Part shown: one piece after another, positions 19,061-42,303 of the stretch
Numbering within the stretch: position 1 is the stretch's first letter
Layout: each line of letters begins with the position of its first letter
Origin: Chloroflexota bacterium
GTDB lineage: Bacteria; Chloroflexota; Limnocylindria; Limnocylindrales; Limnocylindraceae
Direction of reading: 5' to 3'
Assembly: GCA_041177405.1 (NCBI GenBank)
Contig: JBEDBF010000001.1
Coordinates: 1 to 42,303, forward strand
DNA length: 42,303 nucleotides
Notes under the pieces: generated by a model
The model's database searches: none
Seen by the model: only the letters and a program-made list of their open reading frames with translations
What the model was told of the DNA's origin: nothing
Position numbers and translations under genes: made by a program

Positions 19061-19195
19061 TCAGACGGTGAGGCGCTTGCGGCCGCGGGCGCGGCGGCGA
19101 GCCAAGACCTTGCGGCCTGACGTCGTCGACATGCGCTTACGGAAACCGTGTTCGCGGAATCGCTGTCGCTTCTTTGGCTGGTGCGTTCGCTTCAT
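19061..19195 (-). CDS. rpmH: 50S ribosomal protein L34 (below the ORF-track length cutoff)
   Basis: The reverse complement translates to [44 protein letters not shown] followed by a stop. Confidence 0.95.
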
Positions 19196-19555
19196 GTTGA
19201 TCGCTCCCGTCAGAGTGGCCTTGGTGTCGCTCCGCCGTGCGGACCGGGTACCAAGAGGGCTGCCTGGCCCAGAGCCGCGAGGTGGGCGGATCTAGGAAGG
19301 GAAGTATCGTTGGGGAGCCGCCAGGGTGTCAATTCAGGCGTGGTTGGCCTTGCGAAGGGGGCGCAACGCGGGACGGACTCGTCTCCGGAACCCCTCGCCC
19401 CCCGCTGGAAAATGTATGTAACAAAGCCCGCGCGACGCGTCGTACGGGTTGGAGAGTTGCTGCTATTCTCCGCCTCCCCCCAACAGGGTCCGGGCGGCCA
19501 ACACGCTGCCCCGCCGACTCTCTGACGCGGGGAATAGAGAGGGAGGCGCTGCGGC

Positions 19556-20986
19556 ATGGATCGACGACAGGTCTGGCGCGCCACACTCGGAGAGCTAGAG
19601 ATCAGCCTCTCTCAGGCGACCTTCGAAACCTGGTTCCGTCGAACCGCACTCCTTCGCGTTGACGAAGGGAGCAGCACCTTCACCCTCGGAGTTGCGTCGG
19701 GTTTCGCGAAAGATTGGATTGAAGAGCGCTATCGCTCACTGATCGCACAGACGATCGCAAAGATCGTTGGCTACAGCGTCACACTTCAAGTTGAAGTTGT
19801 CAGCGAAGAAGAACTTGACGCGCATGGCGCGCCCGTTGGAAAGAAGAACGCGTCGGCTTACAGCGCATCGCCGTCCCGAACCGCTGCGTCAGCAGGTGAC
19901 GCGGTGCGTGTTGTTGATACAAGTGAGCCAACACGCCCAACAAACTTGAATGCGCGATACACCTTCGCAACATACGTGGTCGGTTCCGCAAGTCGACTTG
20001 CACACGCTGCGTCGCAATCGGTTTCGGAGCGCCCGGGTGGCGCATACAACCCACTCTTCCTCTACGGCGGGACCGGGTTGGGGAAGACACACCTTCTGCA
20101 CGCAATCGGAAATGCGGTGATGGAGCGCTCGCCGAAGCGACGCGTCCTCTACATCACCGGTGAAGCCTTTACCAATGAGTTCATCCTTGGCATTCAGCAA
20201 GGGGCCGCCGATGCGTTCCGATCGCGTTTCAGAAAGATTGATGTTCTTCTGATTGACGACATCCAGTTCATTGCGGATAAGGAGCGAACGCAAGAAGAGT
20301 TCTTCCATACGTTCAACACGCTCCACTCCGCAGGGAAACAGATTGTGATCACATCAGACAGAACACCGAAGGAGATTTCGCTTCTTGAAGAGCGGTTGCG
20401 CTCGCGGTTTGAGTGGGGCTTGATTGCCGATATCTCTTCGCCCGACCTTGAAACGCGAATCGCCATTCTGCGCAGCAAGGTTGAAGAGAGCGGCGTGATC
20501 GTTGCAGATGATGTGTTGGAGCAGGTCGCCCGCCGCGTGCAGAGCAATGTGCGCGAACTCGAGGGTGCGCTGACGCGTCTCGTTGCAGTGGGGCGCCTGA
20601 GTGGTATGCCCGTCACGATGGAGCTTGCGGCGCGTGTCTTGAGCGAGGCGGTATACCCAAGCCCGAAGCGCATCCTTGAACCAGAGCAGGTGGTCGCCGT
20701 CGTTGCAGAGCATTACGGGATGACCGTTGAACAGCTCCGCGGACCGAAGCGCGACCGCGAGATTGTGGTTCCGCGGCAGATCGCCGCCTACCTCTCGCGT
20801 GAGGAGACCGACGCATCGCTGGTTCGCATCGGTGGGGCCCTCGGGGGGCGTGATCACTCGACCATCATCCACGCCTGCGGCAAGATCGAGCGCGAGATGA
20901 GCTACGACGCGGAGTTGCGCCGCGAGGTGGCCCTCCTACGAGAGGCCCTCCTCCGGCACGGCCAGGGGGCTGCCGCCTCTTCATAG
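19556..20986 (+). CDS. dnaA: Chromosomal replication initiator DnaA
   Basis: NPLFLYGGTGLGKTHLLHAIGN, VLLIDDIQF, SNVRELEGAL, C-terminal DNA-binding domain IAAYLSRE ... GRDHSTIIHACGKIE. Confidence 0.96.
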   Translation: MDRRQVWRATLGELEISLSQATFETWFRRTALLRVDEGSSTFTLGVASGFAKDWIEERYRSLIAQTIAKIVGYSVTLQVEVVSEEELDAHGAPVGKKNASAYSASPSRTAASAGDAVRVVDTSEPTRPTNLNARYTFATYVVGSASRLAHAASQSVSERPGGAYNPLFLYGGTGLGKTHLLHAIGNAVMERSPKRRVLYITGEAFTNEFILGIQQGAADAFRSRFRKIDVLLIDDIQFIADKERTQEEFFHTFNTLHSAGKQIVITSDRTPKEISLLEERLRSRFEWGLIADISSPDLETRIAILRSKVEESGVIVADDVLEQVARRVQSNVRELEGALTRLVAVGRLSGMPVTMELAARVLSEAVYPSPKRILEPEQVVAVVAEHYGMTVEQLRGPKRDREIVVPRQIAAYLSREETDASLVRIGGALGGRDHSTIIHACGKIEREMSYDAELRREVALLREALLRHGQGAAASS

Positions 20987-21286
20987 CCTGTGGATATCTG
21001 GTGGAGAAGTGGTGGGTTAGCCACTATCTCGCACGAGGGGCGTGCGCACGCTGAGGACACCTTGTGGAGAACCTGTCTGGGGTTTCCCCCAGCCACTCCT
21101 GGGAAGAGGGGGGTTTACGCGCACCTGGGGTGGGTCGTTCACACTTTAGCGGGGGTTCCCCACGCCTTATAGATGAGGGGTTACGCGTAGGCTCCACAGG
21201 TTCCACACTACGAATACGGCGGTGACGGGTTTAAAGAGATAAGACACTATTAGCAAGACGCCCTGAGGGGTTGTGGAGGAGTTGAG
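20987..21286. promoter_or_regulatory. Candidate oriC / DnaA-box cluster in the dnaA-dnaN spacer
   Basis: DnaA-box-like 9-mers: TGTGGATAT 20989-97, GGTGGAGAA 21000-08, TTAGCCACT 21017-25, TGTGGAGAA 21063-71, GGCTCCACA 21190-98, GGTTCCACA 21199-207, TGTGGAGGA 21272-80. An AT-rich patch TTTAAAGAGATAAGACACTATTAGCAAG sits at 21230-57 in otherwise GC-rich DNA. Confidence 0.65.
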
Positions 21287-22402
21287 ATGAAGCTATCGGT
21301 CATTCAGGAGAACCTCGCGCGGGGCCTCGCCATCGTTGGTCACGGCGTGGCCTCCCGAAACACGCTTCCGATCCTCTCCAACGTATACCTCGGCACCGAA
21401 GACGGCGGCCTTCGTTTGGTGGCGACGAACCTCGAGATTGCTGTCACCCACTGGGTCCCGGCAAAGATTGAAGAGAAGGGCGCCACAACGATCCCGGCGC
21501 GCCTGTTGAGCGACGTGGTGAACGGACTCCCGAACGAGAAGATTGACATCTCGCTTCTCCCAGACGGCCGCGTGCACTTGAAGTGCGGTCGAAGTGCCTC
21601 ACACCTTCGCGCCACACCTGCCGACGACTTCCCGCAAGTGGGAGCCGCAGGCGAGCGCGTCACCGCGCGAATCTCGCAGAAGGAGTTGCGCGCCGCACTT
21701 GACTCAACCGTCTTTGCCGCCGCAGGCGATGAGGCGCGACCGATCCTCACCGGCGTTCTCACAAGTTTCACCGGCGAGAAGGCAACCTTCGCCGCCGCAG
21801 ACAACTACCGGATCGCAGTAGCTGGCGCCGCGCTAGCAGAGGCTGCGCCCGAGACAAGCATCATCGTGCCAGCGCGCGCATACGCCGAACTCCTTCGCCT
21901 TCTCTCAGACGTAGACGATCTGGTTGAGATCACGTTGACGCCAGCAAAAAACCAACTGCAGTTCAAGCTCGGCGACACCATGCTGGTGAGCAGGCTGATT
22001 GACGGACAGTTTCCTCCATTCCAGCAGGTGATCCCAACCTCGCACACCACGAAGGCGGTTGTAGTGCGCGACGACTTCCTGCGCGCGGTTCGTCTTGCAC
22101 AAGTCGTCGCTGATGCGTCAGCTCACATCGTGCGTTTCGCAATAACCTCCGAGGGGGGCGGGGCGATCGATATCACCGCCGCCGCAGATGTTGGAGACCA
22201 CGCCGCGCACGTTGAGGCGAACGTTGAGGGCGAAGGGACAACCATCGCGTTCAATGCGAAGTACCTCGTCGATGTGCTCTCCCGCGTTGAAGCCGATCAG
22301 TTTTCGCTAGAGCTCACCGGGCCGATCGCACCAGGACTGCTTCGCCCGCTTGATGGGCGCGACTACCTCCACGTTGTGATGCCGGTTCGCACCCCCTCCT
22401 GA
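21287..22402 (+). CDS. dnaN: DNA polymerase III beta sliding clamp
   Basis: It follows dnaA and has typical length. MKLSVIQENLARGL ... LPILSNVYL ... ATNLEIA ... LIDGQFPPFQQVIP. Confidence 0.94.
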   Translation: MKLSVIQENLARGLAIVGHGVASRNTLPILSNVYLGTEDGGLRLVATNLEIAVTHWVPAKIEEKGATTIPARLLSDVVNGLPNEKIDISLLPDGRVHLKCGRSASHLRATPADDFPQVGAAGERVTARISQKELRAALDSTVFAAAGDEARPILTGVLTSFTGEKATFAAADNYRIAVAGAALAEAAPETSIIVPARAYAELLRLLSDVDDLVEITLTPAKNQLQFKLGDTMLVSRLIDGQFPPFQQVIPTSHTTKAVVVRDDFLRAVRLAQVVADASAHIVRFAITSEGGGAIDITAAADVGDHAAHVEANVEGEGTTIAFNAKYLVDVLSRVEADQFSLELTGPIAPGLLRPLDGRDYLHVVMPVRTPS

Positions 22403-22466: not shown

Positions 22467-23624
22467 TTGATTGAGCGCGTGCGTCTCCAGCAGATCCGCA
22501 GTTGGACCGCCGGAGAGATCCGCTTCTCTCCGGGTCCGCAGATCCTCTGGGGTGCGAATGGCGCAGGGAAAACCACGGCGGTTGAAGCGCTCCTGGTGGC
22601 GGCTACCGGCCGCTCGCATCGAGCCGGCGCCCTGCGTGAACTCGTGCAAGAGGGGGCGAGCAGCGGTTCGTTCACCGTCACGCTCCGCGACCCGGGCGAA
22701 GAGGCGGGCGACCCGCTCGCCGCGACCACGCTTGCGGCCGAAATCGGGCGCTCGGAACGAACACGCTATCTTGTCAACGGCACGGCGCGCAGGAGCGAGA
22801 CGCTCGGAGAGAGGCTCAAGGTTGCCGCCTTTGTCCCTGAAGAGACAGGGCTCGTGGTGGGCGCACCCTCCGTACGCCGCGCGGCACTTGACCGAATCGC
22901 AATCCAGTGGAAGCCCGGATACCGAACAGCGCTGACCAGATACGAACGCACACTTAAACAACGCAACCGCCTCCTGAAAGATGCGCTTGAGAGCGACGGT
23001 GCGGAGCGGCGCGCGATCAGCGCAGAGATGCGGCCTTGGACCGAGCTGCTCATTAGCAGCGGGGCCGAGATCGTTGCCGCTCGAGGTGAACTGCTGCGCG
23101 CACTCGCTGCACCGCTTGCGGCCGCGCATCACGACGTAGCCCCAACCGAGGGCGAACTACGCGTGCACTACGTTTCTCGTGAGGGACATCTGATCGACGA
23201 AGGGGTTGACGCCGCCGCCGCTCGCTTGCGCACCTCGTTCGACGAGACGGCGGAGAGCGAGGGCTACCAGGGACATACACTTGTCGGCCCACATCGTGAC
23301 GACCTCGCGTTTCACGTTGACGAAAAGGATCTCGCGCCCATTGCATCGCGAGGCCAACAGCGCAGCCTCCTCCTCGCGCTCCTGTTTGCCGAGATCGAGC
23401 TGCTCACCACCGATCGTGGCGAGCCGCCCCTCCTCCTCCTCGACGACGCCTTTTCCGAACTCGACCCAGAGCGGCGCGACCACCTCGTAGAGCGGCTCGT
23501 CTCGCTCCCGCAAACAATCATCACCACCACAACGCTTGCAGACCTCGCTCCACGTCTCGTTGCTGTGAGCAGAGCCCAAGAGGTGATTCAAGGTCCACGC
23601 GGAAGCGAAGTGCACCATGGTTGA
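22467..23624 (+). CDS. recF: DNA replication/repair protein RecF
   Basis: Walker A GANGAGKTTAVEAL, signature-like GSRGQQRSLLLAL, Walker B PLLLLDDAFSELD. TTG start after AAGGAGAGGAG. Confidence 0.9.
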   Translation: MIERVRLQQIRSWTAGEIRFSPGPQILWGANGAGKTTAVEALLVAATGRSHRAGALRELVQEGASSGSFTVTLRDPGEEAGDPLAATTLAAEIGRSERTRYLVNGTARRSETLGERLKVAAFVPEETGLVVGAPSVRRAALDRIAIQWKPGYRTALTRYERTLKQRNRLLKDALESDGAERRAISAEMRPWTELLISSGAEIVAARGELLRALAAPLAAAHHDVAPTEGELRVHYVSREGHLIDEGVDAAAARLRTSFDETAESEGYQGHTLVGPHRDDLAFHVDEKDLAPIASRGQQRSLLLALLFAEIELLTTDRGEPPLLLLDDAFSELDPERRDHLVERLVSLPQTIITTTTLADLAPRLVAVSRAQEVIQGPRGSEVHHG

Positions 23625-23964
23625 GAGGCGTGAACGGAAAGGGAAACCACAGAAGCTGAGCGCGCTGATCCCTGAGGCGGCGCGGGCGCTCGGGTATGAG
23701 GAGGAGCTTGAGCTCTCGCGGCGTGCGCGTGTCTTTCAGGAGCTTCTCAATCAAATCGCACCGCACCTCGCGCCGCACTGTCGCCTCACTGGAGGCGAGA
23801 GTGGCCGTCTCATCATTGAGGTTGATGATCGTGCAACTGCACAAGAGCTCCACCTGCGCAGCGCAGAGATCGCGGGCGCGTACTCGAGCCACCCCAGCGG
23901 GATGCGCGCGATCGGCCTGACCGTGCGCCTTGGACGAAGCGGCGACGATACCGAGCGGCACTAG
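23617..23964 (+). CDS. DUF721-domain protein (the family that includes the DciA helicase-loading factor)
   Basis: A small ORF overlapping the recF stop by 8 nt, in the conserved recF-DUF721 position. The pattern LSALIPEAARALG ... GRLIIEVDDRATAQELHL fits DUF721 as I remember it. Confidence 0.7.
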   Translation: MVERRERKGKPQKLSALIPEAARALGYEEELELSRRARVFQELLNQIAPHLAPHCRLTGGESGRLIIEVDDRATAQELHLRSAEIAGAYSSHPSGMRAIGLTVRLGRSGDDTERH

Positions 23965-23980
23965 GCGTATCCTCTGCAGA

Positions 23981-26464
23981 ATGAACGAAGGACGCAGAAC
24001 AACAAACGCGACAACCAACGCGCAGCCAACCCTACTCATCGGCTCGTCGACACTCGTCGCAGCAGGAGATTGCGCACTCCTCCTCCGCATGCCAACAAGC
24101 CCGACCACCGCTCGCACGCTCGGCGCGCGAGCGATACTCCTCTCAGCACCCGAAGCGAGCGCATCGCAGCGTAAGGCAGCAGCGGAACGAGCCCTCAACC
24201 TCTTTGACCAAGGAGACGGGAGTGCCGGTGAGCGCGCGCGCAACGTGATCGTCACCCTCCGCGAGCAGTTGGGTGAGCGCAGCGAGTTCTGCATGGTCGG
24301 CCTCCTTCGCCGCGAGGCGTGGGCCGCATCAAGCGGGAGCATTACCGCAGTGGCCTCACTGCTTCGTGAGAGCCGACACGTCACCGTGCTGCTCCCCAGC
24401 GGCGCACCAGGTGCGACATCCAAAACCGCACAACGACAAGGAGTGATCACCGGGCGCGTGGCGCTCGCCACAGGGGACCGCATCGCCTTGGCTGTTAGCG
24501 AGGAAGAGGCACGAGCGCTGCTAAAGCGTCGTCCAGGTGCGATGGGCGACACCCCGCAACTTGAACTTCTGCTTGCAAATGAAGAGCCCACACCGCCACC
24601 GTCGCGTACCGTCGCACGTACGAGCGACACGCTGTTGACTATCCCGGCAGACAACATCGCGCAGGCGAAAGCACGCGCACGCGCACGATGGGAAGAGGGG
24701 AACGACGAGCGAAGCGAGTTGATCGCCGCCGCCGTGCCACCAAAACCAGAGGGGGATCGCCGCCGCCCTGAAAGCCCAACCGAGCCGTACACGCCGATCG
24801 ATCGAGCGGCACAGGCGGTGCTCGCAGAGCGCCGCGGAGGGGGTCCGCGCGGGGGAGTGCCAACCCGCGGCCCAGTTGAGCCCGCTGCCCAACCGAGTCG
24901 CGAGGCAAGAAGCCGCGAAGCGGTTCGACGCGCGGCGCAAGCACGCGCAGAGCGCAGCCCTGGCGCTGAACCAGCAATCGAGCGATCGCGAGCCGAACGC
25001 GGCGCGCGCCCACTCTCGCCGCTGCAGGTTGCAACCAGACGCCTCGCCAACGCGGCAGAGCGGCGCTTCCCGTGGCTCGCGTCACGAGTGCCGGCCCCAA
25101 GCCTTGATGTCGAACGCAAGCGCGACACCTCACCAGAGAAGGCGATCGTCCGCGGCCGTCGACGCAGCGCCACCGTGCTGCTTGTTGCCATCCTCATCAC
25201 GGCAACCGGCGGAGTGGCAAGTGTGTACCTCAACCGCTCTGACCCAACACTCGACGCGGTGGCGAATGCCCGTGAGGCACTTGCGGAGGCGAGCCGAGCG
25301 GTTGAAGAGGCGCTAAACCCAGTCACCAATTTGTTGGCAAGCGATCCGGAGCGCGCGCGAACACTCCTTGTGGGCGCGACAGAGAAGCTCATCACCGCTG
25401 AAAATGGCGGAGCGTCGCAGACGGAGATCAGCGCGCTGCGTGAAAGAATGGAACCAGCGCTCGACAAACTCTTCCTCCTCACTCGTGCCCCAGTGTTTGA
25501 TGTGTTTGACTTCAGCTCCGCAACGGTGCCAATTAACATCACGGCAATCACGCAAGGCCCAGACGGATATAGCTATATCCTTGATGACTATTCTGGTGCG
25601 GTCTATCGAGTGGATCCAGCCGCCCAGCCAAATCCGCGCGCCACTGTTGTCTATCAACCTGGATATGAACTGTTTGGTAGCACCACAGGGCGCGCACAAA
25701 CGATCACCGCATCAGGACCAGACATCCTGATCTTTGACACATCATCAAACTTGTGGCGCTGGCGACCCGCTGATTTGAGCGGAAAAGGAACGCTTGTCAA
25801 GTTACGTGTTCGAGACGGTGAGCTCTGGGGGAACGACGTAAAGATCATTTCTGGGTTCGCTGCAGATGAGGGGACAGGGCTGTATCGAATCTATGTGGTC
25901 GATCCATCTGCGCGTCAGATTCTGCGCTACACACCGGCCCCCGACGGGACGGGATACCCCGCTGCACCGACCGGATACTTGATCAATCCTGCGTCGCTCA
26001 CCAACGTTGACGCAATGGCAATTGATGGAGACCTCTACCTTGCGCAAGGTGGGGCCGTCCAACGATACGTCGGCGGCTCCGTTGACGAGTGGGCTCCCGC
26101 AGATCCTGGGGACAGTGTGATCCGTCGCGCTCCCGAGATTCGCCTCATCATGTCGGCCGGCGCGAGACGGACGGGCGTTCTATACGGTTGGGACACGCGC
26201 AACCAACGGATGCTTGCGTATAGCAAGGGCGCGTCTGGGAGCGTGCTTGCGCAGTATCAACTCGTGGCGAGCGACGGCGTCGTTGCAGACATCGTTGGGG
26301 GCTACATCGCGCTTGCTCGAGACGGTGGAGCCCCAACGTTTATCTGGGCCGAATCGGGTCGGATTAGAGGTGCGGTGCTCGGCTCGCCGATCACTCCTGG
26401 TGCGAGCCCAACGCCGGTTCCTACCGCCGTTCCCGTGATCGAGTTGCCAAGCTCCCAGCCGTAG
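23981..26464 (+). CDS. Hypothetical single-pass membrane protein: cytoplasmic globular domain, Arg/Pro/Glu-rich disordered region, TM helix, repeat-rich (beta-propeller-like) outer domain
   Basis: Long ORF with protein-like composition. TM helix ATVLLVAILITATGGVASVYL at 25169-25231. The C-terminal half shows recurring strand motifs (AVYRVDP, LWRWRP, ILRYTP, VQRYVG, MLAYSK). I prefer ATG 23981 (17 nt after the DUF721 stop) over TTG 23930. Confidence 0.75.
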   Translation: MNEGRRTTNATTNAQPTLLIGSSTLVAAGDCALLLRMPTSPTTARTLGARAILLSAPEASASQRKAAAERALNLFDQGDGSAGERARNVIVTLREQLGERSEFCMVGLLRREAWAASSGSITAVASLLRESRHVTVLLPSGAPGATSKTAQRQGVITGRVALATGDRIALAVSEEEARALLKRRPGAMGDTPQLELLLANEEPTPPPSRTVARTSDTLLTIPADNIAQAKARARARWEEGNDERSELIAAAVPPKPEGDRRRPESPTEPYTPIDRAAQAVLAERRGGGPRGGVPTRGPVEPAAQPSREARSREAVRRAAQARAERSPGAEPAIERSRAERGARPLSPLQVATRRLANAAERRFPWLASRVPAPSLDVERKRDTSPEKAIVRGRRRSATVLLVAILITATGGVASVYLNRSDPTLDAVANAREALAEASRAVEEALNPVTNLLASDPERARTLLVGATEKLITAENGGASQTEISALRERMEPALDKLFLLTRAPVFDVFDFSSATVPINITAITQGPDGYSYILDDYSGAVYRVDPAAQPNPRATVVYQPGYELFGSTTGRAQTITASGPDILIFDTSSNLWRWRPADLSGKGTLVKLRVRDGELWGNDVKIISGFAADEGTGLYRIYVVDPSARQILRYTPAPDGTGYPAAPTGYLINPASLTNVDAMAIDGDLYLAQGGAVQRYVGGSVDEWAPADPGDSVIRRAPEIRLIMSAGARRTGVLYGWDTRNQRMLAYSKGASGSVLAQYQLVASDGVVADIVGGYIALARDGGAPTFIWAESGRIRGAVLGSPITPGASPTPVPTAVPVIELPSSQP

Positions 26465-34153: not shown

Positions 34154-35332
34154 ATGGAAGAATCGCTCGCCGCGCGTATCGTTGCGGAGATCCGCGAGCG
34201 AGGACCAATCAGTTTTGCGCGATTCATGGAGCGCGCACTCACTGAGCCAGGTATCGGCTACTACGTTGGCCCGCATGCACGCGCAGGGCGAGAGGGTGAC
34301 TTCATTACCGCACCAGAGATGCACGGGATTCTCGGTTCAGCACTTGCACGGCTGTTTACCCAAACATGGGAGCGGCTCGATCGACCAACACCGTTTCGCT
34401 ATACCGAGTACGGCGCCGGATCTGGCACACTCGTCTGCGCCATCATCGATCAGCTCATCAGAGATACATCACCACTCCTTGAGGCGCTTGAGATCCAACT
34501 GATTGAAGTCAATGAACACCGCGTAGAAGAGTTGAAAGCTGCGGTGAGCGCACGTGCGCTCCGTCAGCCGCTGAACATCGTGCACGTTGATGCACCCCCG
34601 GTGGCGGGAGTTGTTGTGGCGAACGAATATCTCGACGCACTCCCGTTTCACATCTATGTGGGACGAGCAGCGACCGCCTGCGGCGTTGCAGAGCGTCGTG
34701 TTGGAGTCAACGAGCGCGGCGTACTTGATTGGGTGGAAGTGCCGCTGGACGAATCCGAAGCTGAGCGAGTGCGTCAGCGGTTTGGGGCACCACTCGCTGA
34801 AGGGCAACGCGCAGAGGCCTGCTTTGCTGCAGACAGATGGCCGTCCGAACTGGCGCAACGAATCAGTCATGGGCTTGTGGTGGTGATTGACTACGGCCGC
34901 GAAGGGGTTGAACTGCGTGACGCTGCGAGCCGCGCGGCCGGGACGGCACTTGCCTATCAGGGGCATCGGGCCACGGACGACCTCTTGGGGGACCCAGGGG
35001 GGCGCGACCTGACCGCCCACGTTGACTTGACCGCCCTGCGAGTCGCCGCCACCGCGGCGGGGCTCACCCCGATCGCCTCCACCAGCCAGGCGGCACTCCT
35101 CGCAGGGGCGGGCCTTGATGACGAAATCGAGCGGATCCGCCGAGGGCCAGAGGCGACCCTTGAGGGGGCGATCGCCCTTCGCGCGGCGCTTGCACGGCTG
35201 ATGAACCCCCGGAGCATGGGTGGCTTTGCCGTTGAGCTCTTCGCCCTCGGCTCGGCTGAGCACATTTCACGCCTCTCAGATGCGAGAAATCCGCTCCCTG
35301 GAGCGGCGGCTCCGATCCGCCCCCTCGTCTAG
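34154..35332 (+). CDS. Class I SAM-dependent methyltransferase of the DUF185 / MidA / NDUFAF7 family
   Basis: ISFARFMERALTEPGIGYY, GDFITAPEMHGILGSALA, EYGAGSGTL, ANEYLDALP, DLTAHVDLTAL match the family pattern. Confidence 0.8.
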   Translation: MEESLAARIVAEIRERGPISFARFMERALTEPGIGYYVGPHARAGREGDFITAPEMHGILGSALARLFTQTWERLDRPTPFRYTEYGAGSGTLVCAIIDQLIRDTSPLLEALEIQLIEVNEHRVEELKAAVSARALRQPLNIVHVDAPPVAGVVVANEYLDALPFHIYVGRAATACGVAERRVGVNERGVLDWVEVPLDESEAERVRQRFGAPLAEGQRAEACFAADRWPSELAQRISHGLVVVIDYGREGVELRDAASRAAGTALAYQGHRATDDLLGDPGGRDLTAHVDLTALRVAATAAGLTPIASTSQAALLAGAGLDDEIERIRRGPEATLEGAIALRAALARLMNPRSMGGFAVELFALGSAEHISRLSDARNPLPGAAAPIRPLV

Positions 35333-35404: not shown

Positions 35405-35761
35405 ATGAACGGACTCTGGTACGTCCTCGGCTTCGCCGGCGCGGGTGTCTCCTTCGTCTTTTTGACGATCGGGATCGCCTGGCTGATCTCCCACCGTACG
35501 CGCGGAAGCCGAGGGAAGCAGGTGCCATACGAGTCGGGCATCGACACGTACGGCGACACCCACGGCCGCTTCGGCCTCTCCTTCTATCTCTACGCACTTC
35601 TCTTCGTTGCGTTCGATGTTGAGATCGTCTTTATTTACATCTGGGCGCTCAACTTCCAAACGCTCCTCATCGAAGGCCTCGTCTCCATGGCGGTCTTTAT
35701 CGGCGTCTTGCTGATCGGGCTCGCATATGCGTGGCGAAAAGGGGTGCTCGCATGGCGATGA
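35405..35761 (+). CDS. nuoA: NADH-quinone oxidoreductase subunit A
   Basis: 3-TM protein with YESGID ... [19 protein letters not shown]. Confidence 0.9.
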
Positions 35762-36429
35762 CACGCGATCCAAAGAAGGCGTTGCAGGCTCCGATCGTCA
35801 CACCGAACACGCTCTGGACCACCGACGACCCGCGTGCATACGGTGGTCAGCCGCTCGCCGAACATCCGAACCTTGAGCTCGCGCGCTATGACGCCACTGG
35901 CGAAGGTCGCGTGGATGATGCGCGTTGGAGCGGAGCGCTTGGCGCGATCCCAACAAAGGCAGACATTGTGCTCGACCTAATCCGAGCAAACAGCCTCTGG
36001 CCACTTCTCTCCGGACTCGCATGTTGCGCGATCGAGATGATGTCAACCGCGACGCCAAAGAACGATATTGATCGCTGGGGGATGTTCCCCTTCCGCGCGT
36101 CGCCGCGACAGGCAGACGTGTTGATCGTCGCGGGAACACTGACAACAAAAATGGCGGAACCGCTCATTCGACTATGGGAGCAGATGCCAGAACCGAAGTG
36201 GGTTGTTGCAATGGGAGACTGCACCTGTTCAGGCGGTCGCTATAAGCGCAGCTACTCCGTGGTGCAAGGGATTGACCGCGTGATGCCCGTTGATGTCTAC
36301 ATCCCAGGATGTCCGCCACGACCAGAGGGCCTGATCTACGGAATGATGAAACTGCAGCAGCTGATTAAGGATCGTCGTGGACATTGGCCGGAGCGCGCAA
36401 TCGGCCCAACCGTTCCGGACGGAATCTAA
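35752..36429 (+). CDS. nuoB: NADH-quinone oxidoreductase subunit B (all four N2 cluster Cys present) with a long N-terminal extension
   Basis: [45 protein letters not shown]. The start is ATG 35752 or 35758, overlapping the nuoA stop. Confidence 0.9.
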
Positions 36430-36980
36430 TGGATCGCGCGCTCGCCACTGCACTCCAGGAGCGCTTCGGCAACACGCTTCTCGCCCCCGTTCGTCAACGA
36501 TTTGACGAGACGGAGATTCGCGTCAGCATTGCTGATGCAATCCCAACGCTGCGCGCGCTACATGATGAACCTGCATTCGCATATGAAATGCTGATTGACC
36601 TTTGTGGGGTAGATACCGGTGAAGAGATGCAGGTCGTGTATCACCTTTCGTCGTCTCAAAGTGGTGACTGGCTTCGCGTGATCGTCCCCGGTATTGACCG
36701 AAGTGCGCCGCGCGTGAACTCGCTCGTCTCACTCTGGCCAGGCGCCGAATGGATGGAGCGCGAGGCCTACGACATGTTCGGCATCATCTTCGAAGGGAAT
36801 CGCGACCTTCGTCGCATCTACATGCCAGATGATTATGTGAGCCACCCGCTCCGAAAAGATTTCTATCTTGCAGACGACGCGTCGCGGTCACCGGCCGCTG
36901 GCGTTCGCAACATGGAGCGCGTGGGAACGCCCGTTGATGCCACCCGCAGCACGGCACTACGCAAGAGTCCAGGGGCATAA
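36429..36980 (+). CDS. nuoC: NADH-quinone oxidoreductase subunit C
   Basis: LIDLCGVD, SLWPGAEWMEREAYDMFGIIFEGN, DLRRI, HPLRKDF. ATG overlaps the nuoB TAA (TAATG). Confidence 0.9.
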   Translation: MDRALATALQERFGNTLLAPVRQRFDETEIRVSIADAIPTLRALHDEPAFAYEMLIDLCGVDTGEEMQVVYHLSSSQSGDWLRVIVPGIDRSAPRVNSLVSLWPGAEWMEREAYDMFGIIFEGNRDLRRIYMPDDYVSHPLRKDFYLADDASRSPAAGVRNMERVGTPVDATRSTALRKSPGA

Positions 36981-36982
36981 GC

Positions 36983-38197
36983 GTGACCACACCCCTGACG
37001 AAACCATCACTTGACGATCCAAGGATTGCGATCCCCGCTGCCTCCGAGTGGTACGAGCCCGCACCCACGGCGCAGACGGAGCGACAGGCGGAGTTCCTGA
37101 ACCTTCGCGACGGCGAGATGTTCATCAATATGGGGCCGCAACACCCGTCCACACACGGGGTGCTTCGCATCGTCGTCAAGGTGAACGGCGAGCAGGTTGT
37201 TGACCTTGACCCCGTGCTCGGATACCTCCACCGCGGCGTAGAGAAGCTCTGCGAGAACGCCGACTACCACCAGGCGATCTGCTACACCGACCCACTCGAA
37301 TACGTGGCCTCGCTCTTCTGCGAAGCCGCACCCGTGGCCGCCTTCGAGAAGCTGATGGATGTCGACGTCCCGCGCCGCGCGCAGTACATCCGCGTCCTCA
37401 CCATGGAGCTGAATCGCATCGCCAGTCACACCCTCTTCCAGGGGTGGATGGCGCTCGATCTTGGTGGGATCACGCCGATCCTCTGGTCGTTCATTGAACG
37501 CGATGAGATCGTGGACATGCTCGCGGCTCTCACGGGGCAGAAACTGCTCTACAACTACTACCGCATTGGTGGCGTGAACGGCGACCTCAATCACGAATTC
37601 ATGAGCCGACTCGGCAACTGGATGAGCCGCGCCGCCGCGCAGATCGATTCAAACCTTGGGTTGATGAACGAGAACGAAATCTTCGTTCGACGCACGCGCG
37701 GTCTCGGCACGCTTGATGCGGCTACTGCGCTGCGCATGGGTGTCACTGGACCAAACCTGCGCGCCACCGGCGTGCCGTTTGATCTCCGCCGCGATCACCC
37801 ATATCTGGTGTATCCAGAGCTTGAGTTCAACGTGCCAACACGCCAAGAGGGTGACTCGCTTGCGCGCTACATGGTTCGGATTGACGAGATTCGCGAGTCC
37901 ATTCGCATCATTGATCAGGTGCTGCACGAAATGCCAGATGGTCCAGTGATGGCGAAACTCCCGCGCCTGATCCGACCACGACCAGGCCGCGCATTCGGCG
38001 CGGTAGAAGGGCCGCGTGGCGCGTACGGCGTGTACGCAATCTCTGATGGCACCGATCAACCGTTCCGGATGCGCATTCACGACCCATCGTTCGTTCACTT
38101 GCAACTGGTGGGTCCGCTCACGCGCGGCAATTTGATTGCAGACACCATGGCGGTGATGGCAAGCCTTGATCCTGTCATGGGTGGGGTGGACAAGTGA
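36983..38197 (+). CDS. nuoD: NADH-quinone oxidoreductase subunit D
   Basis: NMGPQHPSTHGVLR, LGYLHRGVEKL, ELNRIASH, EGPRGAYGVY, HDPSF, DPVMGGVDK. Confidence 0.93.
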   Translation: MTTPLTKPSLDDPRIAIPAASEWYEPAPTAQTERQAEFLNLRDGEMFINMGPQHPSTHGVLRIVVKVNGEQVVDLDPVLGYLHRGVEKLCENADYHQAICYTDPLEYVASLFCEAAPVAAFEKLMDVDVPRRAQYIRVLTMELNRIASHTLFQGWMALDLGGITPILWSFIERDEIVDMLAALTGQKLLYNYYRIGGVNGDLNHEFMSRLGNWMSRAAAQIDSNLGLMNENEIFVRRTRGLGTLDAATALRMGVTGPNLRATGVPFDLRRDHPYLVYPELEFNVPTRQEGDSLARYMVRIDEIRESIRIIDQVLHEMPDGPVMAKLPRLIRPRPGRAFGAVEGPRGAYGVYAISDGTDQPFRMRIHDPSFVHLQLVGPLTRGNLIADTMAVMASLDPVMGGVDK

Positions 38198-39531
38198 GCG
38201 GCGCACAGATGGCATGGTCACGAATGACGCCAGGCGGACGCGCACTCGCCGTGCTGCTGCCACTTCTCTCCGTTGGGGGCGCGGCGATCACCGCCCTGCT
38301 CGTTGTAGCGGGACCGTTCATTGGCGCAACCATTGGGGCAAACCTGCCAATCGTGCGCTTCCTCGCCGCGTCGGTGATCACCTTCTTGATCACCGTCCCT
38401 GTTGCATTCCTTTTGATTTACATGGAGATGAAGATCATTGCGTTGATGAATCTGCGCATCGGCCCAGATCGCATCGGTCCCGGCGGTGCCGTCATGAGTG
38501 TGGTGCACGGGCTCAAGGTGCTGATGAAGGAGGACTACACGCCGCCGAGCGTTGATGTTCCTGTCTTCACGCTCGCACCCGTCGTTGTCTATCTGGCGAG
38601 CTTCATGACGATCATGGTCATTCCGTTTGCGCCAGACCTCACGAGTATCGGACTCGAGTTCGGCCTCCTCTACTTCTTCGCTATCGGCGGACTCGGCGTA
38701 GTGGGCTTGATGATGGCGGGCTGGTCCTCGTTCAACAAGTATTCGCTTTTGGGCGGCATTCGAGCCGCAGCGCAGGCGATCAGCTATGAGATCCCCCTGA
38801 CACTCTCCGTCGTAGGAATCATCATCTTGACCGGCACACTCTCGCTCCCAAAGATTGTGGAGGCGCAGAGCGGTTCCCTGCTTGACTGGTTCATCTTCCG
38901 TCAGCCACTTGCGGCGATCATCTTCTTCATTGCAATCACCGCAGAGGCGAACCGCACGCCGTTTGATAACACCGAAGCCGATCAGGAGATCGTTGCCGGA
39001 TTCGCAACGGAGTACTCCGGCATGCGCTTCGGCTTCTTCTTCTTTGCGGAGTACGTCAACGTCTTCATCGTCTCAGCACTCTTCTCCGCCGTCTTCCTTG
39101 GCGGATCCAATGCACCGCTTGTTCTCCCCTTCAACCCTGAGATCAATGTGGACCTGAGCGGGCTCGGCCTCCTCCTCCCGATCGCGGCGGGGATCGCTCC
39201 GCTGCTTGGGACGTTGGCGATCGGCCTCCCCATCTACGCGATTAGCGCGCGCATCAAGGCCTGGCAGGCACTCCTCGCCGGCTTCCTCATCTTCGGCGCG
39301 CTTTCGACAGCGGCCATCGGCTTCTGGGCCTGGGCGATGCTTCCACCCGTCGCGGACCTTGTCTGGTTCCTGCTGAAGACGTTCACCCTGATCTTCATCT
39401 TCGTCTGGATGCGCGCAACGTTGCCGCGCGCGCGCATCGACCAGCTGATGGGCTTCGCCTGGAAGTGGCTCCTCCCCGCCTCACTGCTCAACCTATTTGT
39501 CACGGCTGCCGCCGTGTTGCTGACGGCATAA
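38194..39531 (+). CDS. nuoH: NADH-quinone oxidoreductase subunit H, about 100 aa longer than usual
   Basis: EMKIIALMNLRIGPDRIGPGG, LKVLMKEDYTP, AEANRTPFD, EADQEIVAGFATEYSGMRFGFFFFAEY, WMRATLPRARIDQLM. GTG 38194 overlaps the nuoD stop. Confidence 0.9.
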   Translation: MSGAQMAWSRMTPGGRALAVLLPLLSVGGAAITALLVVAGPFIGATIGANLPIVRFLAASVITFLITVPVAFLLIYMEMKIIALMNLRIGPDRIGPGGAVMSVVHGLKVLMKEDYTPPSVDVPVFTLAPVVVYLASFMTIMVIPFAPDLTSIGLEFGLLYFFAIGGLGVVGLMMAGWSSFNKYSLLGGIRAAAQAISYEIPLTLSVVGIIILTGTLSLPKIVEAQSGSLLDWFIFRQPLAAIIFFIAITAEANRTPFDNTEADQEIVAGFATEYSGMRFGFFFFAEYVNVFIVSALFSAVFLGGSNAPLVLPFNPEINVDLSGLGLLLPIAAGIAPLLGTLAIGLPIYAISARIKAWQALLAGFLIFGALSTAAIGFWAWAMLPPVADLVWFLLKTFTLIFIFVWMRATLPRARIDQLMGFAWKWLLPASLLNLFVTAAAVLLTA

Positions 39532-39541
39532 GGAGGGTCTG

Positions 39542-40363
39542 ATGGCACGAATCCCAGGCTCAGGCATCGTCCGCGGAATGGCCCTGACGCTCACGCGCTT
39601 CTTCCAGCCGAAGAAGACGGTGATGTACCCCGAAGTGAAGCCAGACATTCCGCCGCGCAACCGTGGTCGCTTGGAACTGGTGACCGACGAGCGTGGCACG
39701 CTGAAGTGCGAAACCTGTTTCCAGTGCGCGCAGGCGTGCCCAATTGAGTGCATTGACATGGGCGGAACAGATACCAAGGGAAGGTACGCCGTCCACTGGG
39801 GGCCGGCGGAGCAGTACGCCGAGCGCCGCGAAGAGTCGGCGATGCGTCGCTCCGGACGAACCGTCTCCGACGCTGCGGCAGCACAAGAGAGCAGTGTTGA
39901 CCTTCGACCCGTTGAAGCGGCGTTGGAACGCGTTGACTACGACCCGCATCACATGTTGCAGATCCTTGAGTCAGTACAGCGCGCGTACGGATATCTGCCG
40001 GTTGATGCATTGAAGCGCATCAGTCGCGCCACTGGCGCCTGGTACGCCATGGTCTATGGCACCGCAACCTTCTATAAACACCTCACGTTTGAGCCGGGAC
40101 GCAATCGCACGATCGCGGTCTGCCGTTGTGCAAACTGCTTGGTTGCCGGCGCAGGGCGCGTGATCAACACGCTCTCGTTCGAATTTGGAACAGAGTTCGG
40201 ACAGGCGATCCCGTGGAGCAACCTGCGGCTCGAAGCCCTCCCAACACACCTTCCTGACGCCCCATCGCCGCTCGTGGTGATTGACGGCGAACCACAGCGC
40301 GAGCTCTCAAGTCGCAATGCCGAGTCGTGGGCCGCCGCGCTTGCGGGGAGGTACGCCGCGTGA
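39542..40363 (+). CDS. nuoI: Fusion protein: N-terminal half of NuoI (single 4Fe-4S motif) joined to a NuoE-like thioredoxin-fold domain with an incomplete 2Fe-2S ligand set
   Basis: NuoI part: KKTVMYPE, RNRGRLEL, CETCFQCAQACPIEC (39707-39751). NuoE-like part: LQILESVQRAYGYLP, VYGTATFY, IAVCRCANC (40121-40138). SD AGGAGGG precedes ATG 39542. Confidence 0.8.
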   Translation: MARIPGSGIVRGMALTLTRFFQPKKTVMYPEVKPDIPPRNRGRLELVTDERGTLKCETCFQCAQACPIECIDMGGTDTKGRYAVHWGPAEQYAERREESAMRRSGRTVSDAAAAQESSVDLRPVEAALERVDYDPHHMLQILESVQRAYGYLPVDALKRISRATGAWYAMVYGTATFYKHLTFEPGRNRTIAVCRCANCLVAGAGRVINTLSFEFGTEFGQAIPWSNLRLEALPTHLPDAPSPLVVIDGEPQRELSSRNAESWAAALAGRYAA

Positions 40364-41622
40364 AGCAACTGAGCGCACCAAAGGGATGGTCACAGATCCT
40401 CATGACGCCACCGGCAACGCCGTGGAGCGCGCTGCGCGCTGCGCTCGCCGCTGGTGGCGCGGCAACCGCGCAGACACTCATTGATGCCGGCCTGCGCGGA
40501 CGCGGCGGTGGGGGTTTCTTGACCGGTGAGAAGTGGCGTGCAGCTGCGCAGAGCGACGCGTCGCCGAAATACGCGGTGGCAAACGCATACGAGTCAGACC
40601 CAGCCGTCTTCACGAACCGTCTCCTTCTTGAAAAGAATGCACTCGGAGTCATTGAGGGCCTCGCGATCGCCGCACTCAGTGTTGGCGCGCGTGAAGCGAT
40701 GATTGGCGTGCGCGCGGAGTACAGCGACGCAATCCGTTCGCTTGAAGTGACCATCACCACCGCAGAGCGCGAAGGCGTTCTCGGGGCCAACGTGCTCGGA
40801 AGCGGTCGCGAGCTCACCGTGCGCGTCATCCCACTTCAAGGCTCAAGCATGATCGGTGAAGAGACGGTGCTGCTCAAGGCGCTTGCAGGAAAACGCGGTC
40901 AGCCAGAGCAGACGCCGCCGTATCCATCGGAAGTTGGCTATCTCGGCAAGCCGACCGTGGTGAACAACGTGGCAACACTCGCCGCCGTCTCTTGGATCCT
41001 TGCCAACGGCGCCGCTGCATTCAAGCAGATTGGCGACCCAGCGCAGCCTGGAACCATGCTCGTTCAGGTGAGCGGCTCGATCACTAACTCCGGCGTCCTC
41101 GAAGTTCCGACAGGAACCCCACTCGCGGAGATCCTCGCAGTGGCGGGAGGCCCCGCACGCGGAGCCACGATCAAGGCGCTTCTTGTTGGCGGCCCATCGG
41201 GCGGATTTGTTCCTGCGCAGCTGTTGGCAAGTACGCCGTATAGCGGCGCCGGACTCGCCGCGGTTGGCGCGCACATTGGTTCGGGCGCGCTGCTTGCCCT
41301 CGACGGGAGCGCATCAATTCCTGAGCTCGCCGCCATGTTGACGCGCTGGTGTGCCGACGAAGCCTGCGGAAAAACAATTCCATGCCGCATCGGCACCCGT
41401 CGCCTTGCTGAGATTGGGCAACGCTTTGTCGACGGTCTCGCTGGCCCGCAAGACGGCGAGCGACTCCAGGCGCTCGCGGCAGATGTTGCAGATAGCGCGC
41501 TCTGCGCGCATGAGCGGCTCACGCCAAGCCCACTCCTGACGGGGATGCGATACTTCAAACACGAGTTTTATCCGGCCAACGTCGCGCAGCCAAGCGGCGC
41601 AGTAGCAGGACGGAGTACGTAG
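40360..41622 (+). CDS. NuoF (51-kDa subunit)-like protein with divergent cofactor motifs
   Basis: GLRGRGGGGFLTGEKW, IGEETVLLKALAGKRGQP, PPYPSEVGYLGKPTVVNNVAT, EACGKTIPCRIG. GTG 40360 forms a GTGA overlap with the upstream stop. Confidence 0.8.
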   Translation: MKQLSAPKGWSQILMTPPATPWSALRAALAAGGAATAQTLIDAGLRGRGGGGFLTGEKWRAAAQSDASPKYAVANAYESDPAVFTNRLLLEKNALGVIEGLAIAALSVGAREAMIGVRAEYSDAIRSLEVTITTAEREGVLGANVLGSGRELTVRVIPLQGSSMIGEETVLLKALAGKRGQPEQTPPYPSEVGYLGKPTVVNNVATLAAVSWILANGAAAFKQIGDPAQPGTMLVQVSGSITNSGVLEVPTGTPLAEILAVAGGPARGATIKALLVGGPSGGFVPAQLLASTPYSGAGLAAVGAHIGSGALLALDGSASIPELAAMLTRWCADEACGKTIPCRIGTRRLAEIGQRFVDGLAGPQDGERLQALAADVADSALCAHERLTPSPLLTGMRYFKHEFYPANVAQPSGAVAGRST

Positions 41623-42303
41623 ATGGCAGGCCTCATGGAGCGACCAACGAGTGGTGTGACACCAGTTGATGCCACCGCGGTGCAGACCACCTCAGAGAGC
41701 CAAGCGGTTGAGCAGATGCTCTCCACGCGCAGCCCACAACGCCCGCAGCGCACCCCAACCTTCTATGTAGAGATTGACGGGAGGCAGCTCGAGGCGTTTG
41801 AGGGACAGACAATCCTCGAAGTCTGCCGCGCAAATGGCATTGAAGTCCCAACGCTCTGCTACGACCCGAAACTTCCTGGATTCGGCGCATGCCGCATGTG
41901 TGTGGTCGACGTTGACGGGTGTGACTCACCGCAGATCAGCTGTTCGGCAAAGGCGGAACCCGCAGCGGTCATTGCCACACAGACCGATCGGCTGCGTGAG
42001 ATTCGTCGCACCAACCTGGAGTTGATCTTTAGCGACCACAACGCGTACTGTCTGCCGCCGTGCCAAAACAAGTGCCCGAGCCACATCGACATTCCAGGTT
42101 TCTTGAAGGCGAACGCCGAGTCGCAGTTCCGCGAGTCGGCGCGCATCTTCAAGCGCACCATCCCGTTCCCAAGCATCCTCGGTCGCGTCTGCCCAGCACC
42201 TTGTGAAGACCACTGCCGTCGTGACGAAGTTGACGAAGCGATCGCGATCCGCGACAGCCACCGCTACGCAGGCGACCAGGTGCTCAAGTCAATGTGGGAC
42301 GAG
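41623..42303 (+). CDS. Partial CDS (3-prime end outside the window): NuoG-type N-terminal 2Fe-2S domain fused to a GltD (glutamate synthase small subunit)-like Fe-S/NAD(P)H oxidoreductase domain
   Basis: Not in the ORF track because it has no stop. I translated it by hand from ATG 41623 (TAGATG with the nuoF-like stop): FYVEIDGRQLEAFEGQTILEVC ... LCYDPKLPGFGACRMCVVDVDGCDSPQISC (C-x10-C-x2-C-x13-C), then CLPPCQNKCPSHIDIPGFLKANAESQFRESARIFKRTIPFPSILGRVCPAPCEDHCRR ... IAIRDSHRYAGD. The second part parallels the GltD N-terminal Fe-S region. The frame stays open to the last base. Confidence 0.8.
   Translation, partial: MAGLMERPTSGVTPVDATAVQTTSESQAVEQMLSTRSPQRPQRTPTFYVEIDGRQLEAFEGQTILEVCRANGIEVPTLCYDPKLPGFGACRMCVVDVDGCDSPQISCSAKAEPAAVIATQTDRLREIRRTNLELIFSDHNAYCLPPCQNKCPSHIDIPGFLKANAESQFRESARIFKRTIPFPSILGRVCPAPCEDHCRRDEVDEAIAIRDSHRYAGDQVLKSMWDE

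Follow-up and report, generated by a model that had tools for sequence, protein, structure and literature searches.

The window analysed here is a stretch of 42,303 nucleotides (nt) from a freshwater Chloroflexota bacterium of the family Limnocylindraceae (assembly GCA_041177405.1, contig JBEDBF010000001.1). Its final part, from 35405 to 42303, carries nuo genes for a complex I-type enzyme. Gene calls were based on open reading frames (ORFs) and profile matches (Pfam, NCBIfam). Eight genes, all on the plus strand, were found between 35405 and the window end (Table 1): nuoA, nuoB, nuoC, nuoD and nuoH, followed by a gene in which a NuoI-like segment is fused to a NuoE-like domain (I'::E'), a NuoF-like gene (F') and the beginning of a long gene at the position of nuoG (G'). 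With start codons that match orthologous gene calls, the junctions measure -10 (A/B), -1 (B/C), +2 (C/D), -4 (D/H), +10 (H/I'::E'), -4 (I'::E'/F') and 0 nt (F'/G'). This bears out the initial annotation, which had described the same gene order and had read the genes as one unit from their overlaps or spacings of at most 10 nt.

The sequence of NuoB contains all ligands of cluster N2 (the tandem CC, a third Cys and the Cys of the CPP motif). NuoD lacks the ligands of a NiFe site, carries the quinone-site motifs HPSTHGVLR and GYLHRGVEK, and scores 419.5 bits against NF004739 (cut-off, 360). Both sites had been annotated as intact, and this was confirmed. The proposed comparison of gene order across genomes returned the same order in every related locus that spans the region. 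In close (87 to 99% identical) as well as distant (57 to 62%) contigs, the full order is nuoA-B-C-D-H-[I'::E']-F'-G'-J-K-L-M-N, and synteny is kept in about 60 loci. The E-, F- and G-position genes had been thought to stand in place of nuoJ; instead, nuoJ-N directly follow G' in loci L006, L008, L010 and L011, which are 97 to 99% identical to the window, and also in L001 to L004. The complex I core is found in one cluster, with A, B, C, D and H in the window and J to N in the relatives. The operon comprises 13 genes, and its first two thirds lie in the window; it is fairly probable that it encodes a complex I-type, proton-pumping quinone reductase.

The nuoI gene had been annotated as truncated, but alignments indicate that it is split, with its N-terminal half fused to the N-terminus of E' and its C-terminal half to the C-terminus of G'. 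Residues 9 to 81 of the fusion match only the first half of NuoI (TIGR01971 positions 1 to 65; Paracoccus chain 8qby_I, residues 17 to 81). This half holds the N-terminus that docks to the membrane and Q-module, together with the first CxxCxxCxxxCP motif (C56, C59, C62 and C66), and the fusion carries no other such motif. The tail of G' in relatives matches TIGR01971 positions 71 to 117 with 46 bits, and NuoI is the best NCBIfam family for the tail alone. Likewise, NuoI/TYKY chains in the PDB align with this tail over 41 to 51 residues, past the Cys motif and into the FELA segment. The concatenated halves are collinear with NuoI over TIGR01971 positions 1 to 117 of 121 and score 97 bits, approximately the sum of the separate scores (50.5 and 46). 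They align to E. coli 7awt_I (residues 17 to 129), Thermus 2fug_9 (6 to 128) and Arabidopsis 7ar7_I (23 to 144), and the break point lies in the loop between the two Cys motifs of NuoI. All eight NuoI Cys are invariant, four in 24 I'::E' sequences (C56/59/62/66) and four in 59 G' sequences (C768/771/774/778). No intact nuoI was found in any related locus, including between nuoH and nuoJ, and no single polypeptide combined two Cys motifs with a score of at least 113 bits against TIGR01971, as the halves reside on two proteins.

Each cluster of a 2x[4Fe-4S] ferredoxin fold is held by three Cys of one motif plus a single Cys of the other. By this rule, N6a and N6b would each be ligated by both polypeptides, and as the clusters would be shared, the NuoI fold should form only when I'::E' and G' meet. 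An AlphaFold2 model of I'::E' alone had predicted local distance difference test values of 70 to 95 for E' and below 50 for residues 19 to 114 (the NuoI half and linker). This low confidence is compatible with a segment that obligately requires a partner, although it is a weak indication and uninformative on reassembly.

Table 1. Features of the nuo cluster and its upstream neighbour (positions are those of the window)
Feature	Position	Strand	Evidence and remarks
Methyltransf_28 methyltransferase gene	34154..35332	+	PF02636, E 4.6e-44; 72-nt gap to nuoA
nuoA	35405..35761	+	PF00507, E 1.8e-31
nuoB	35752..36429	+	PF01058; TIGR01957, 220 bits; ATG at 35752 agrees with orthologous gene calls
nuoC	36429..36980	+	PF00329, E 5.9e-39; start overlaps nuoB stop by 1 nt
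nuoD	36983..38197	+	PF00346, E 6.9e-83; NF004739
nuoH	38194..39531	+	PF00146, E 7e-101
I'::E' fusion gene, 273 amino acids (aa)	39542..40363	+	TIGR01971 first half (aa 9-81) and PF01257 (aa 125-259)
NuoI N-terminal half (fusion aa 1-88)	39542..39805	+	TIGR01971 positions 1-65, 50.5 bits; PDB NuoI chains, residues 17-81/86
Linker between NuoI half and E' (fusion aa 85-124)	39794..39913	+	Alignment; motif HWGPAE..ERREESA..RRSGR largely invariant
E', NuoE/BfuC-like thioredoxin-like domain	39914..40363	+	PF01257, E 1.1e-18
F', NuoF/BfuB-like core (FMN/NAD(H) domain, SLBB, N3 domain), 420 aa	40360..41622	+	PF01512, SLBB, PF10589
G', first 227 aa before the window end	41623..42303	+	Fer2_4 and Fer4_20; best NCBIfam match PRK12814 (GltD-like family)
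[2Fe-2S] domain of G', after an N-terminal extension	~41767..41985	+	Fer2_4
Start of GltD/NfnL-like domain of G'	~42049..42288	+	Fer4_20

Previous structural work has described the NfnABC/StnABC transhydrogenases of Sporomusa ovata (8OH5; PMC10482914), Caldicellulosiruptor saccharolyticus (9BOV/9BP5; PMC11829005) and Thermococcus sibiricus (9N5U; PMC12018979). In these enzymes, the large subunit NfnA/StnC contains a GltD/NfnL-like domain whose non-bifurcating flavin adenine dinucleotide (FAD) is reduced by NADPH, and electrons then follow the clusters A7-A6-A3-A2-A1 to B1 and the flavin mononucleotide (FMN) of the NuoF-like subunit (PMC10482914, PMC11829005). Clusters A2-A4-A5 (C1/C2 in Stn numbering) form a side branch towards a dead formate dehydrogenase (Fdh)-like domain; this branch has been called an evolutionary remnant (PMC10482914, PMC11829005). 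By homology, E', F' and G' are closest to this Bfu-type transhydrogenase and not to canonical NuoEFG. The best PDB matches of E' are HydC (7p5h_C), NfnC (9n5u_C, 9bov_C) and StnA (8oh5_A), all ahead of NuoE, and those of F' are StnB (8oh5_B), NfnB (9bov_B) and HydB, at 290 bits versus 226 bits for the best canonical NuoF. Residues 54 to 785 of G' align with C. saccharolyticus NfnA (9bov_A, E 2e-165), S. ovata StnC (8oh5_C, 8e-142) and T. sibiricus NfnA (9n5u_A). The three proteins fell well short of the canonical NuoE, NuoF and NuoG cut-offs of TIGR01958, TIGR01959 and TIGR01973 (45.4 versus 142.4, 306 versus 558.65, and 71.2 versus 470 bits, respectively). In contrast, the subunits of an Nfn-Bfu module were all present, namely those of the BfuC, BfuB and BfuA types, the last with an NfnL/GltD-like FAD/NADPH domain.

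Full-length G' has 849 residues in orthologues that are 97 to 99% identical (Candidatus Limnocylindrus) and 849 to 878 residues across relatives; the full-length proteins of L001, L004 and L006 were examined. Beyond the point at which the window ends, orthologous G' has FAD and NADPH domains as well as another three 4Fe-4S motifs, and it closes with the C-terminal half of NuoI. Its Pfam architecture is Fer2_4, Fer4_20, Pyr_redox_2 and Fer4_Nqo3/Fer4, and no molybdopterin-like domain was found in it. All Fe-S, FAD and NADPH-type motifs are invariant in the 59 G' sequences. These comprise the [2Fe-2S] ligands (C79/90/93/107 in L006 numbering), two Fer4_20 clusters, the GSGPAG FAD motif, VYRRDMKDMPA (the VYRRxxxxMPA motif common to the NADPH-binding StnC/NfnA), CxxCxCx5C and two CxxCxxCxxxC motifs in the ferredoxin-like domain. 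The alignment with StnC/NfnA ends at about residue 700 of 1172/1178, and the NuoI half begins about 20 residues after the ferredoxin-like domain of G'. An Fdh-like domain was not found in G'; the NuoI half occupies the place where the soluble enzymes carry it. StnC K170, a Lys ligand of the FAD-proximal cluster, was reported to be strictly conserved (PMC10482914). However, this position is a His in G' (H219 in L001, corresponding to H213 in L006), which is invariant in the 59 sequences and is also a His in the more distant L090 and L093.

F' and E' differ further from their canonical counterparts. F' aligns only to residues 146 to 512 of the 584 residues of StnB; the N-terminal thioredoxin-like domain and the C-terminal 2x[4Fe-4S] domain of BfuB are absent, and clusters B2-B5 were not found. 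F' sequences from 73 related loci were surveyed for motifs, one of which ends before the N3/B1 motif. This motif, EACGKTIPCRIG / ADEACGKTIPCRIG, holds three Cys, and the window reads EACGKTIPCR, with an invariant Thr339 for the second Cys. Cys331 was considered as a substitute for the fourth N3 ligand and was rejected, as it varies between C, G, S and A across the family. The LCxHE motif and His384 are invariant, and His384 is a possible fourth ligand. The arrangement CxxXxxC...C is the classical [3Fe-4S] signature of SdhB/FrdB. From the motif, the N3 site of F' may hold a 3Fe cluster, a His-completed 4Fe cluster or no cluster. In E', the invariant residues C194, C196, C199 and H236 replace the four-Cys [2Fe-2S] site, and the second canonical Cys pair is absent (24 sequences).

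The initial annotation had called the E-, F- and G-position genes divergent and every part that feeds electrons to N2 altered. The divergence was confirmed, as seen in the single Cys motif of the fusion, the Cys pair lost from E' and the Thr at an N3 Cys position of F'. However, the proteins are not degraded NuoEFG subunits but NfnABC/StnABC homologues in which the motifs of G' are invariant. The wider proposal, that the locus represents a distinct electron-input solution for a complex I core, is supported by the presence of this Nfn/Stn-type module. Like NfnABC/StnABC, the window encodes a NuoE-like, a NuoF-like and a large subunit in this order, and the large subunit consists of a [2Fe-2S] domain, a GltD/NfnL-like FAD/NADPH domain with the shared YRR motif, and a ferredoxin-like 2x[4Fe-4S] domain. 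Unlike in the soluble enzymes, G' ends in one half of NuoI rather than in a dead Fdh-like domain, and E' starts with the other. Further differences are the lack of the terminal BfuB domains in F', the three-Cys N3/B1 site, the Cys3-plus-His site of E', the His in place of K170 and the setting within a nuo operon.

Ratios of nonsynonymous to synonymous substitution rates (dN/dS) were calculated against L001, L024 and L020 and are approximate, as dS was saturated (about 1 to 1.7). They were 0.05 to 0.10 for I'::E', 0.15 to 0.17 for F' and 0.07 to 0.09 for the G' fragment, compared with 0.02 to 0.13 for the core subunits; F' had the highest dN and dN/dS among the genes of the nuo cluster. The altered residues Thr339 (F'), His236 (E') and His213 (G') are themselves invariant. 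A decaying or nonfunctional paralogous operon would account for the noncanonical ligands of E' and F' and for the scores below the NuoE, NuoF, NuoG and NuoI cut-offs. However, with module dN/dS values of 0.05 to 0.17, motifs that are invariant down to 57% identity, altered residues that do not vary, synteny in about 60 loci and at least 576 matches in species-representative genomes, this explanation can very nearly be dismissed. Pseudogenisation or relaxed selection, which had been named as the outcome that would refute the proposed input module, is thereby ruled out. The low dN/dS values together with the invariance of the unusual residues indicate an operon that is functional and derived, not decaying.

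Another alternative is an ordinary NADH:quinone complex I, in which the FMN of F' is the sole entry point and the FAD/NADPH domain of G' is a structural leftover. Indeed, F' retains GLRGRGGxGF, GEET, GGPSGG and three of the four N3 Cys in nearly all lineages, and NuoG is likewise known to carry a dead molybdopterin domain. However, none of the 59 G' sequences departs from the FAD motif, the NADPH-type motif or the two Fer4_20 clusters, and G' is the best-conserved protein of the module, with between-lineage identities of 44 to 47% compared to 37 to 42% for F' (which has the highest dN and dN/dS of the cluster) and 28 to 32% for I'::E'. Furthermore, in one Limnocylindrus lineage, represented by two independent metagenome-assembled genomes (MAGs; L020 and L021), the Gly-rich FMN loop of F' is destroyed (LHCHRDGGASVASSW), GEET has become GEST and NNVAT has become TRAAT (VTRAAT), while the three-Cys N3 motif and all G' motifs are kept. 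Judged by these motifs, this lineage is a natural case of loss of the FMN/NAD(H) site. An ordinary NADH-dependent enzyme is therefore considered unlikely. The divergence of F', the loss of the FMN loop in L020/L021 and the intact motifs of G' suggest that the FAD/NADPH entry is indispensable and the FMN/NAD(H) entry secondary.

A search with I'::E' returned 2783 relatives at E<=1e-5, and the best 120 of these are all full length (about 270 to 305 residues), 57 to 98% identical and named by their sources as Chloroflexota or Candidatus Limnocylindrales. When one genome per GTDB species was scanned, at least 576 stretches encoding an I'::E' relative emerged, the best of which (99%) were from Candidatus Limnocylindrus MAGs. 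Ungapped DNA identity between the window and L006 was 0.88 to 0.91, a value that was probably lowered by indels and was not used; the protein identity is 99%. By these matches, the architecture recurs in hundreds of Limnocylindria genomes and is conserved across the whole class. One Limnocylindrales MAG (GcC5-39, JBIOII01; L063 and L071) contains two I'::E' copies on separate contigs, with 56% and 58% identity to the query, which could represent paralogous operons or a mixed bin.

More distant I'::E fusions (about 30% identity) with canonical NuoE Cys were found in a search of 50%-identity representatives. In L093 (6255-20762) and L094 (602-15092), from a lineage of which one source names a member 'Thermoleophilia bacterium', the order is nuoA-B-C-D-H-[I'::E]-[BfuB, 636 to 643 residues]-[G', 824 residues, with the C-terminal half of NuoI]-J-K-L-M-N. 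BfuB is complete in this lineage, with the N-terminal thioredoxin-like domain, a canonical N3 site and the C-terminal 2x[4Fe-4S] domain, and the BfuC/NuoE cluster is canonical. This operon is a candidate bifurcating complex I, with a full Nfn-Bfu module inserted into a split nuoI. In L090 and L091, the order is A-B-C-D-H-[I'::E]-F-G', with nothing nuo-like directly downstream. The N3 motif of both lacks the third Cys instead of the second; in the F protein of L090 (9115-10521) it reads EACGRCIPGRLG, with an extra Cys in LCGLC. As the third Cys is missing in this lineage and the second in Limnocylindria, the N3 site has been altered independently in two lineages. Proteins of the G' type with about 800 residues were also named from Dehalococcoidales/Chloroflexi, Ktedonobacterales and Thermogemmatispora aurantia/argillosa. 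The Limnocylindria form looks like a derivative that was presumably reduced from the fuller module.

Further variation among lineages was observed in the core subunits. An N-terminal extension of NuoB (35752-35960) with the motif IVxPNxLW..DPxAYGG..RYDxxGEGRxDDARW is shared with L004 and absent in L093 and Thermogemmatispora, and it may provide a contact for the grafted module. NuoH of Limnocylindria (445 to 447 residues) has an N-terminal extension of about 43 residues and a hydrophobic insertion of about 70 residues (residues ~305 to 380), which probably forms extra transmembrane helices. In alignments, NuoH of the L093 and L090 lineages is without this extension and insertion and has a C-terminal extension instead.

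The cultured Ktedonobacterium Thermogemmatispora carboxidivorans (JNIM01000001.1; L092, 7150-12409) carries a four-gene cluster of nuoB, an I'::E'' without cluster Cys, F and a G' with the C-terminal half of NuoI, and this cluster stands apart from nuoA/C/D/H. This separation could be taken to mean that the operon encodes two enzymes, a soluble Nfn/Stn-like transhydrogenase and an 11-subunit complex I, with the NuoI-like ends being generic ferredoxin-like extensions, all the more as soluble NfnABC/StnABC enzymes exist (PMC10482914). However, the module of Thermogemmatispora clusters with nuoB, and NuoB and NuoI are direct partners. Moreover, the stretch from nuoH to nuoJ holds no intact nuoI in any locus. 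The ends match complementary halves of NuoI, including NuoI-specific regions outside the Cys motifs, and they always co-occur, in the L090, L092 and L093/L094 lineages as well. The Fdh-like domain through which the soluble enzymes form tetramers is also missing (PMC10482914). Two separate enzymes are thus highly improbable.

Fusions of a 'half-ferredoxin' to NuoE of the P0239/P0297 type were excluded as members of the same system because of their Por-Bfu, not nuo, context. In one of these loci (L085, 10001-10843; P0297, Por-Bfu), a 'half-ferredoxin' with one CxxCxxCxxxCP motif likewise opens the NuoE-like subunit. Docking of Bfu modules onto partner enzymes through split ferredoxin domains may thus be a general strategy.

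A further alternative is a flavin-based bifurcating or confurcating complex I ('Nuo-Nfn-Bfu') in which NADPH, NAD(H) and ferredoxin would be coupled to quinone reduction, as proposed for Nuo-Bfu. E', F' and G' are all Bfu-family proteins, the split-NuoI operon of L093/L094 has a complete BfuB and a canonical BfuC cluster, and membrane-bound Bfu enzymes have been predicted (PMC9304861). However, ferredoxin binds to the N- and C-terminal domains of BfuB (PMC11829005, PMC12018979), and F' of the window lineage has neither. The ligands of the E' cluster (C1 of the flavobicluster) are noncanonical, and the B1/N3 site has only three Cys. Characterised non-bifurcating Bfu homologues are likewise without clusters B2-B5 (PMC9304861). 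In addition, Limnocylindrus has been described as aerobic, planktonic and rhodopsin-bearing (PMC6169038, PMC13212565), a setting in which ferredoxin bifurcation is less expected. We therefore regard bifurcation in the window lineage as quite unlikely. The absence of the BfuB accessory clusters and the altered BfuC cluster suggest that the Limnocylindria form is most likely a non-bifurcating NAD(P)H:quinone oxidoreductase that is not coupled to ferredoxin.

The explanation that we consider reasonably likely is a complex I-type quinone reductase in which a reduced NfnABC/StnABC module, grafted via the split NuoI, takes the place of NuoEFG. The two NuoI halves would reassemble as one 2x[4Fe-4S] fold and thereby bolt E', F' and G' onto NuoB, NuoD and NuoH. 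Electrons from NADPH would enter at the FAD of the GltD-like domain of G' and, in most lineages, electrons from NADH would also enter at the FMN of F'. They would pass along the NfnA-type cluster chain and exit via the ferredoxin-like domain to N6a/N6b, N2 and quinone, and quinone reduction would drive proton pumping by NuoH and NuoJ-N. The branch that is a dead end in soluble NfnABC would become the productive exit in this enzyme.

Several observations weigh against this explanation. The concatenated NuoI scores 97 bits and stays below the TIGR01971 cut-off of 113, and its second half lies beyond the window end and was taken from relatives that are 97 to 99% identical. The presumed specificity for NADPH over NADH is based on motif conservation with StnC/NfnA. 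NADH may instead be the principal donor, given that most FMN/NAD(H) motifs of F' persist in the majority of lineages. The three-Cys N3 site and the Cys3-His site of E' might represent lost clusters instead of altered ones. As the Lys ligand corresponding to K170 is replaced by His, the potential of the FAD-proximal cluster may differ. Finally, the exit to NuoI in canonical complex I is from N5 of NuoG, so that an exit through the ferredoxin-like domain implies a different geometry.

The operon shares with canonical complex I (E. coli Nuo, Thermus thermophilus Nqo) subunits A to D, H and, in orthologues, J to N, as well as the N2 ligands, the NuoD motifs, the eight NuoI Cys, an FMN/NAD(H)-type subunit and a [2Fe-2S]-containing large subunit. 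Unlike the canonical order A-B-C-D-E-F-G-H-I-J..N, the order here is A-B-C-D-H-I(N)::E-F-G::I(C)-J..N, and the FAD/NADPH domain is additional. Complex I of Campylobacter and Helicobacter has unrelated proteins instead of NuoE and NuoF and takes its electrons from flavodoxin. As in these organisms, the complex I core of the window is combined with a non-NADH-type input module at the E and F positions. Those organisms, however, retain an intact NuoI and NuoG, their substitute proteins are unrelated, and a flavin/NADPH domain is absent.

Schut et al. (2022) predicted Nuo-Bfu enzymes in Geobacter, Deferribacteres, Planctomycetes and Nitrospirae, and Mbh-Bfu in Dehalococcoides (PMC9304861). As in the predicted Nuo-Bfu, a Bfu module amid a complex I-like cluster replaces the NuoEFG input (PMC9304861). 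In contrast, Nuo-Bfu was described as a 14-gene A-N operon with a NuoG-like BfuA and a full BfuB, with no mention of a GltD/NADPH domain or a split NuoI (PMC9304861), whereas the module studied here lies inside nuoI after nuoH and its F' has no ferredoxin-type domain. As that domain defined BfuB in the survey (PMC9304861), this family would not have been collected there. Degli Esposti (2015) noted that NuoI gives way to a GltD-related flavoprotein in the Mbx-like operons that Thermotoga and proteobacteria carry (PMC4758237). Both systems join a GltD-type NAD(P)-binding flavoprotein to a complex I-like membrane complex at the NuoI position. However, the flavoprotein of the Mbx-like operons, as described, substitutes for NuoI and reduces NAD(P)+, whereas NuoI is kept here as two halves and the core is of the Nuo type with quinone-site motifs. 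Searches of open-access papers and bioRxiv preprints turned up neither a split NuoI nor an operon of this kind, and two descriptions of Limnocylindria genomes do not discuss complex I. The split-NuoI/NADPH-module architecture thus appears to be undescribed.

Several other features of the window were noted. A Methyltransf_28 gene lies upstream of nuoA, as it does in L001 and L004 (59% identity), whereas L093 has no such neighbour. Methyltransf_28 is the family of the complex I assembly factor NDUFAF7/MidA; the gene possibly encodes an accessory or assembly factor and may belong to the nuo unit. Genes for jag and yidC occur on the minus strand within 16458-22402, followed by dnaA (19556-20986) and dnaN (21287-22402). 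From this gene set, the window covers the region of the chromosomal replication origin, about 13 kb from the nuo operon. Two long ORFs overlap on opposite strands, one at 23930-26464 (plus strand, 844 residues, no Pfam match) and one at 23521-25551 (minus strand, 676 residues).

Complex I ranks with the most intensively studied enzymes of energy conversion; to our knowledge, few alternative input modules of it have been described, namely F420, ferredoxin in NDH-1, flavodoxin in Campylobacter and the predicted Nuo-Bfu. We consider it an even call whether the operons described here form a separate and widespread class of complex I ('Nuo-Nfn'), in which NuoI would be split, N6a and N6b would be bound by two polypeptides and NADPH would be the direct donor for proton-pumping quinone reduction. 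The fuller 'Thermoleophilia' form would place a bifurcating core on a proton pump, and the class would account for the Chloroflexi that seem to lack NuoG. Spero et al. (2015) counted many Chloroflexi genomes as being without complex I although 13 of its 14 genes were present, 'missing only NuoG' (PMC4453560); if the present interpretation is correct, G' would offer an explanation for these 'NuoG-less' complexes. If two polypeptides rebuild the NuoI fold, modules could dock onto the Q-module in a way not known before, and the locus would be an unusual case of an entire operon placed in frame within another gene. With its range from the complete Bfu module of L093/L094 to the reduced Limnocylindria form, the family would provide a natural series for studying how bifurcating enzymes and the N-modules of complex I are related. 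As cultured Thermogemmatispora species carry the module, the hypothesis is directly testable. Overall, a proton-pumping NADPH:quinone oxidoreductase would change models of redox balance and energy yield for Limnocylindria, described as an abundant freshwater group, and for Ktedonobacteria.

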